NCBI RefSeq assembly: GCF_006345805.1
Contig: NC_043010.1
Location: forward strand, 31,310,001-31,374,000
Length of the DNA stretch: 64,000 nt
Source: Octopus sinensis
Lineage: Eukaryota
Reading direction: 5' to 3'
This document shows positions 1-539 of the stretch, piece after piece (position 1 is the stretch's first letter; every line of letters starts with the position of its first letter). The notes under the pieces are model-generated. The model was not told the origin of the DNA, did not search any database, and saw only the letters and a program-made list of their open reading frames with translations. The translations under genes were made by a program, and so were the position numbers.

Positions 1-107
1 AAGTTTTATATACACATTAGCATTCCGCTAAGTCGTCCATAAATTTTTATGGTAAATGCATATATATTGACGGGTGAAATTAGCCAAACATGTGCCATTT
101 GAGCAGC

Positions 108-158
108 CCTCACTGAAGATGTTCACAGAATAGACAGAACCAGATTTCTAGTCTGAGG
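108..158 (+). ncRNA. type I hammerhead-like motif (one core A missing)
   Basis: CCTCA-CTGAAGA-TGTT..GACA-GAAC-cagatttcta-GTC-TGAGG. Stem I is CCTCA/TGAGG. It sits at the position homologous to the 21829 hammerhead. Confidence 0.65.
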
Positions 159-539
159 ATTTTCAAGTCATCATGAGGTAGTTGGCTCTCCCGTCAGCAT
201 GTATCTGTGCTCTTCATACAGGATTAAGAGTATTTTAACTTTTATTTCTAGCAATATAGGTGCATCAGCACCCTTAGTCACACTTGGTAACAATTGAATT
301 TTTTCTTTATAGTATTACATTACACTTAGATGATTATATATATATATATATATAACGTTGGTTAATGCAGTGCAATCACCTAGAGGTTTTGAGTTCAATT
401 CCAGGCAAGGTACTAAGGTAATTCAAAAAAATAACAACTGAAGGAAAAAATGTCATGGATACAGAGAGTGGAATGAGAACAGTGCACCCCTGTGAATCAA
501 ATAAAGGGCTAGATTCGAAATTCTGATACAAAAACCGAG

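Follow-up and report, generated by a model that had tools for sequence, protein, structure and literature searches.

Two diverged copies of a hammerhead-like repeat in Octopus sinensis differ by paired changes in their stems

The first bases of a 64,000-nt stretch of the Octopus sinensis genome (NC_043010.1, positions 31,310,001 to 31,374,000 of the forward strand; the whole stretch is referred to as the window) raise the question of whether a repeat copy that has drifted from a second copy in sequence still keeps the same RNA fold. An earlier note on this DNA had proposed that positions 1–310 (copy A) align with ~21720–22045 (copy B) as a diverged subfamily of one element, whose changed stems remain paired through selection on RNA structure. 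The copies are homologous, follow a repeat layout, display hammerhead-like anatomy with damaged cores, and differ by an excess of paired changes. We consider it fairly probable that A and B represent two diverged subfamilies of one head-to-tail repeat with a unit of ~350 nt and the layout of a type I hammerhead. The repeat is likely a non-LTR retrozyme, of which the source copies would have cleaved themselves, while for the copies in the window we predict no activity.

Alignment of copy A (1–325) with copy B (21720–22059) gave a local score of 273, compared with a maximum of 126 in 300 shuffles, and the proposed homology holds. By blastn, 5–67 matches 21725–21787 at 82.5% (E 8e-13), and 206–325 matches 21941–22059 at 69%. 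Identity between the two copies amounts to 52/65 in the 5′ spacer and 87/139 in the 3′ spacer, 24/40 and 23/43 in the arms flanking the ribozyme, and 29/53 in the 53-nt hammerhead regions (107–159 and 21829–21881), which align without gaps. The parts of the repeat are as follows:

1–325 (+), copy A, about one unit of a repeat of ~340–360 nt (unit length from contig joints), cut by the window start
5–67 (+), conserved spacer of copy A upstream of the core, 80% identical to 21725–21789, at high depth in three runs
37–52, small hairpin in the 5′ spacer of copy A, from the predicted fold
68–74 (TGACGGG) with 190–196 (CCCGTCA) (+), outer stem of copy A, 7/7 pairs
197–325 (+), conserved spacer of copy A downstream of the core, 63–65% identical to two B spacers
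335–354 (+), (TA)n run just beyond the end of copy A, read from the sequence
21561–22091 (+), copy B locus, 1.5 head-to-tail units with a period of 355
21782–21795 with 21916–21929 (+), outer stem of copy B, 14 bp
21829–21881 (+), hammerhead-like core of copy B, type I, with A21858 at position 12
21251–21392 (−), copy C, an inverted partial copy with its core at 21367–21315, A21338 at position 12 and a decayed 3′ arm of stem I
21380–21560 (−), unrelated ~180 nt separating the outer arm of copy C from its hammerhead, single copy in the window

The head-to-tail arrangement of copy B is evidenced by 152/176 identical positions between 21561–21736 and 21916–22091. Copy C locates directly left of the copy B locus and is joined to it via an outer-stem arm, giving a partial tandem with an adjacent inverted copy at 21251–22091; Penelope-type insertions have been described with this layout, the inverted copy being a 5′ one (10.1101/2021.04.23.441226). 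As to the ends at which target-site duplications (longer than 4 bp where non-LTR retrozymes have them) would lie, copy A is cut by the window edge and on its left the B/C locus passes into an (AT)n tract. This tract of 4 kb (17267–21256) directly abuts the inverted copy C. The cores have a GC content of 0.37–0.43, and the copies are non-coding, with no ORF of at least 110 aa across them and, as read from the sequence, no LTR, PBS or PPT. A search of the window with a covariance model built from these three copies brought up no fourth one, the next-best match (26.9 bits) overlapping an arm of the B locus. Meanwhile, the insert in copy C lies, in the sense direction, just upstream of the hammerhead and contains a 22-nt duplication (21411–21454). 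It presumably resembles the head of a tRNA-derived SINE, by likeness to the A and B boxes; neither ARAGORN nor Rfam found a tRNA in it.

Each copy presents, in order, stem I, CUGANGA, stem II, positions 12–15.1, a 14-nt near-palindromic stem III, GUH and the other arm of stem I, an order that reads as a type I hammerhead. The C3-U4-G5-A6-N7-G8-A9 box is present at 113–119, 21835–21841 and 21361–21355. In copy A the core is composed of:

107–112 (+), 5′ arm of stem I, C107 mismatched (T in five relative contigs)
113–119 (+), core box C3–A9, CUGAAGA, read from the sequence
120–135 (+), extra U after A9, then stem II (121–124 / 132–135), 3/4 paired in the register that we infer
136–139 (+), core positions 12–15.1, AGAA instead of GAAA (A137 in 3/3 relatives covering it)
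139–152 (+), stem III, near-palindromic, 14 nt, C141 mismatched (T in three relatives)
151–153 (+), GUC triplet, with cleavage predicted after 153 from hammerhead geometry
154–159 (+), 3′ arm of stem I, read from the sequence

The motifs quoted earlier are in place: in copy A the two outer arms listed above, CCTCA (108–112), TGAGG (154–158), the GUC triplet and A117 as N7; in copy B TCCCTA (21829), TAGGGA (21876), TGACAG (21790), CTGTCA (21916), the GUA triplet (21873–21875) and U21839 as N7. What went unmentioned there is an A at position 12 in both copies and, in copy A, a G at position 13 and three mismatches (107–159, 141–150 and 124–132). With the outer stem included, 19/22 pairs form in A and 20/22 in B. 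The triplet is GUC in A, GUA in B and AUA in C, in agreement with the required A15.1–U16.1 and H17; in place of the required G12-A13-A14-A15.1, we find AGAA in A and AAAA in B and C. The changes at N7 and N17 had been offered as evidence for a kept structure, and they are uninformative because these positions are free by definition. N7 and H17 are described as variable in hammerheads, and cryptic mutant hammerheads have been noted in repeats (PMC3088659).

A strict hammerhead descriptor gave no match in the whole window. A relaxed one found copy B only, compared with one match in total across 30 shuffled windows, and copy A was matched by neither. No Rfam match in the window reached the gathering level; below the threshold, Hammerhead_3 matched copy B at 22 bits and copy C at 31.3 bits (cut-off 48.5), and no Rfam hammerhead matched copy A at E up to 10. 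These weak matches of B and C span the box and helix II only, and a type III reading was rejected. We also rejected another register for copy A (stem II 120–123 / 133–136, then GAAC), which forms 4/4 pairs but leaves the core one A short; the relatives favour the register listed above. In two copies the hammerhead fold has a predicted energy of −3.0 versus −10.8 and −5.4 versus −14.4 kcal/mol for the minimum, so that in A and B it lies 7–9 kcal/mol above the minimum, with helices II and III at near-zero probability. Folding z-scores were −1.6 for 62–202 and −1.15 for 1–330.

We scored 22 pairs, comprising six in stem I, six in stem III, four in stem II (in a register shifted by one base) and six in the outer stem. 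Over these pairs A and B differ at 17 sites; six pairs changed on both sides and five on one side. Five of the six double-changed pairs, or 5/22 overall, still pair in both copies. The chance of at least six double changes is 0.016, and under simulated independent substitution at least five compensated pairs arise with P of 0.003–0.019, depending on the transition bias; these figures are optimistic because all pairs were picked after the three full sequences had been aligned and viewed. Stem I and the outer stem alone contain three doubles among seven changes (P 0.011). Two double changes fall in stem I, which differs yet pairs as had been claimed, and stems II and III add two, or four when stem III is assessed with the third copy. 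When copy C is included and stem II excluded, a two-sided change is observed in 6/18 pairs versus 2.6 ± 1.2 in shuffles (3 of 500), a comparison that is not to be read as a probability; slid controls show 0–2 such pairs. The core positions that are unpaired and invariant are identical at 10/11 between A and B, versus 19/42 elsewhere. The small spacer hairpin (37–52, corresponding to 21757–21772) shows one further double change, A42–T47 versus G21762–C21767, which was read from the sequence and stands outside these statistics.

Relatives of copy A were taken from public runs, as contigs aligned to 1–330 at 80% likeness in 4 of the 24 runs listed. The numbers of contig pieces per run were 525, 476, 351 and 37; runs X1 and X5 are not independent because they come from one study with the same relatives. 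Close relatives of core A read T107 (five contigs) and T124 (three contigs), and C123, A137 and T141 occur at a depth equal to the three relatives covering these positions. Together these residues fill out stem I and stem III, supply A13 and, by C123 and T124, give a stem II of 4 bp behind the extra U. The nearest relatives are thereby paired at four positions where copy A is weak or mismatched. Of the 106 variant rows, the 40 listed include none at 110, 111, 155 or 156, which makes the A-type stem I a probable subfamily character. The outer stem, by contrast, had been presented as differing between the subfamilies. A difference does exist, at the single changed pair 72–192, but it makes neither a new stem nor a subfamily mark, because most relatives read A72 (seven contigs) and T192 (five contigs), like copy B, rather than G72–C192.

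With compensated pairs between A and B and mismatches repaired in relatives, the two copies read as diverged, structure-keeping subfamilies of one element, and this central claim stands. The further claim of selection on RNA structure applies to the lineage, where it most likely acted on source copies; the window copies are not implied to be under selection now because their cores are damaged.

We notice that the flanks are covered far deeper than the core in the relatives. In X1, the summed depth is 41,000–59,000 over 232–264 (up to 59,000 at 243–253) versus 150–280 over 89–198, and the contig of the copy A locus itself accounts for a depth of 43. No other part of the copy A spacer is shared nearly as widely as the ~33-nt block at 232–264, which has ~10 times the depth of the remaining spacer in 4/4 runs and unrelated loose ends adjoining it; this block is possibly common to further repeat families. 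Eight joints among the 15 of 28 listed skip almost the entire core, so many relatives likely carry different cores between the common flanks. Counted with their linker letters, three backward joints correspond to units of 341, 338 and 341 nt, and one contig wraps at ~360. In these contigs the unit end leads straight to the unit start, with 23–37 letters between. One RNA-like run covers the flanks only, with no cover on 67–198, and is uninformative on expression. Pattern scans found no further copies in metagenome contigs or in viral contigs. Two bacterial matches in genome contigs, without flank similarity and without stem I, were taken as chance.

A G12A change slows cleavage by a full-length hammerhead about a million-fold (PMC2553840), and all three window copies are predicted to be inactive because they carry A at the catalytic G12, with G at A13 in addition in copy A. 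The missing G12 lowers the case for these copies as active ribozymes, not for their descent from one. CpG decay would be the simplest account of A12. The step 11.1–12 is a CpG in canonical hammerheads, and the CpG observed/expected ratio of the window is 0.35. The three copies have TT, CA and TG at the centre of stem III, which suggests a decayed CG in the loop, lost in 3/3 copies. At step 11.1–12, a Penelope-type hammerhead family elsewhere in the window, unrelated to this repeat, has one CG survivor (54062) and the same CA change at 11886 and 31297/32120 (a duplicated pair), and the hammerhead-like motif at 555 reads TG. The scan for other hammerhead motifs yielded 10 matches versus 0–2 in 10 shuffles, of which a few may be chance.

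On the other hand, A12 may have been inherited. The family would then have lost G12 before the subfamilies split and still amplified and diversified, as a non-cutting structure whose fold was held by compensatory change for another use, such as a structural signal for a reverse transcriptase (RT) or cleavage switched by A-to-I editing. A occupies position 12 in 3/3 window copies, with no G12 copy among them, and position 136 does not appear in the 40 of 106 rows listed; to judge from the displayed depth shares, at least two of the three relatives covering 136 also lack G. The copies have diverged by several compensated pairs, and pure CpG decay should yield TG about as often as CA. However, four CA among five is unremarkable (binomial ~0.19) because B and C are probably one insertion. 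Together with the canonical CpG step, the loss of the other inferred CpG, the unrelated family and the empty core in the sole RNA-like run, this leaves an inherited A12 unlikely, although it is the strongest of the alternatives. The host edits A to I heavily; the boldest version, in which the RNA cuts only once A12 has been edited to inosine, seems to us very far-fetched. Literature listings showed nothing relevant on natural hammerheads that are editing-gated or CpG-decayed. If A12 were inherited, a natural hammerhead fold would be maintained without its general base, which bears on the role of ribozymes for such elements.

The preferred reading as a retrozyme can be compared with known systems. 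Non-LTR retrozymes are tandem repeats of 150–450 bp with type I hammerheads, including a family of 350–390 bp in Mytilus galloprovincialis, and mussel and axolotl have two ribozyme families each (PMC7229834). Like the mussel element, the octopus repeat has a ~350-nt unit arranged head to tail, GC below 50%, one type I hammerhead per unit and neither PBS nor PPT; as in mussel and axolotl, it occurs as two related subfamilies in one genome. The likeness is one of layout, and the octopus repeat differs in a long helix III (5–6 bp, palindromic) and in the A at position 12 of every copy seen. Vertebrate non-LTR retrozymes also occur as dispersed monomers and short tandems, and most of them were inactive when tested, 8/9 tested dimers not cleaving (10.64898/2026.07.22.740005). 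Their rule for an active locus is two complete tandem hammerheads, unlike the loci in the window, neither of which has two consecutive units with complete hammerheads. The same report ties retrozymes to Penelope pseudo-LTRs and sampled no mollusc. LTR retrozymes and TRIMs such as Helenus resemble the stretch 68–196 in that it begins with TG, ends with CA and has short inverted repeats (PMC10886601). They differ in having two LTRs and a type III hammerhead; here no PBS follows, no purine tract precedes and the hammerhead is of type I. Since the sequence after CTGTCA and before TGACAG is TA-rich and the element ends in the spacer, we rejected the TRIM/LTR reading. In the giant squid genome, 235 Rfam hammerhead hits have been counted (PMC6962438). 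This count is the only item on cephalopods found in a search of largely open-access literature. The repeat is likely a further family of the known animal retrozymes, to judge from its sequence, and likely extends non-LTR retrozymes to a cephalopod.

Somewhat less probable than an inherited A12, the repeat might belong to a longer, autonomous Penelope-like element as its pseudo-LTR end, present here in truncated pieces and not as a retrozyme in its own right. The extra nucleotide after A9, the G10.1–C11.1 pair and the palindromic helix III are marks of Penelope hammerheads, and hammerhead families rich in covariations have already been reported within single animal genomes (PMC4209133). The tandem and inverted layout agrees with such an origin, and Xenopus retrozymes are related to pseudo-LTRs (10.64898/2026.07.22.740005). 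However, the relatives wrap from unit end to unit start, and helix I (6 bp) and helix II (4 bp) have canonical sizes, not the minimal Penelope form. Unlike in the Penelope-like pseudo-LTR hammerheads, helix III is well formed, and no frame with RT and GIY-YIG adjoins the copies in the window.

The matched changes might also have arisen in DNA, within a DNA-based or rolling-circle repeat whose RNA structure is unselected. Template switching or conversion between inverted repeats is a general mechanism. Both stem III and the outer stem form nearly perfect inverted repeats, the inverted copy is joined in the outer arm, and four of the five compensated pairs are double transitions. Such an origin would leave unexplained the 10/11 identity of the unpaired core and the pair of double changes in stem I, where 41 nt and two other helices separate the arms, and we hold it to be improbable. 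The weakest alternative is that both the resemblance to a hammerhead and the covariation were read in hindsight into two AT-rich sequences. It draws on the failure of copy A with both descriptors and Rfam and on the weak z-scores, and is largely refuted by the independent relatives that pair the positions mismatched in A; the relaxed match to B, with its single counterpart in the shuffles, also speaks against it.

Under the retrozyme reading, we speculate on the following course by analogy with known elements. A repeat array would be transcribed as a multimer, which hammerheads would cut after the GUH triplet into unit-length RNAs. The units may then be closed into circles and copied by the reverse transcriptase of a Penelope-like element, giving partial tandems that carry an inverted 5′ piece, such as the one at 21251–22091; of the 47 ORFs listed, three of which were scanned, none was recognised as a Penelope reading frame. 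Since spread would be confined to source copies still able to cut, the core sequence could drift while the pairing was kept, and the spacer sequence may be kept as a signal read by a protein. After insertion, the copies would have decayed, with G12 lost early in the CpG C11.1–G12. The subfamilies with common flanks and differing cores provide a natural series that separates constraint at the level of structure from that at the level of sequence, and the block 232–264 is a candidate signal for transcription or for a Penelope enzyme.

Other features were noticed in the window. Another repeat lies within (TA)n tracts at 11746–11985 (−), 31190–31441 (+), 32013–32265 (+) and ~54062 (−). Its hammerhead motif is of the minimal Penelope type, with an additional A following A9 and a helix II of 4 bp; one motif keeps G12 and the others have A. 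At 555–632 (+), 230 bases right of copy A, two degenerate hammerhead-like motifs stand in tandem in a repeat that is single in the window. A type I hammerhead-like motif at 54224–54275 (+), for which Rfam gave no match, has intact CUGAGGA, GAAA and GUC, a 5-bp stem I, a palindromic helix III loop and a poor helix II. Within a (TA)n tract, 31093–32034 and 31915–32858 form a direct duplication (96%, ~820-bp period) that may stem from the assembly. A GC-rich 62-bp minisatellite within a dispersed repeat is found at 14498–15023 (8.5 units) and 24562–24790 (~2–3 units), long microsatellites are present, and exons of C2H2 zinc-finger arrays lie at 26999–28303 and 60005–61525 (+).
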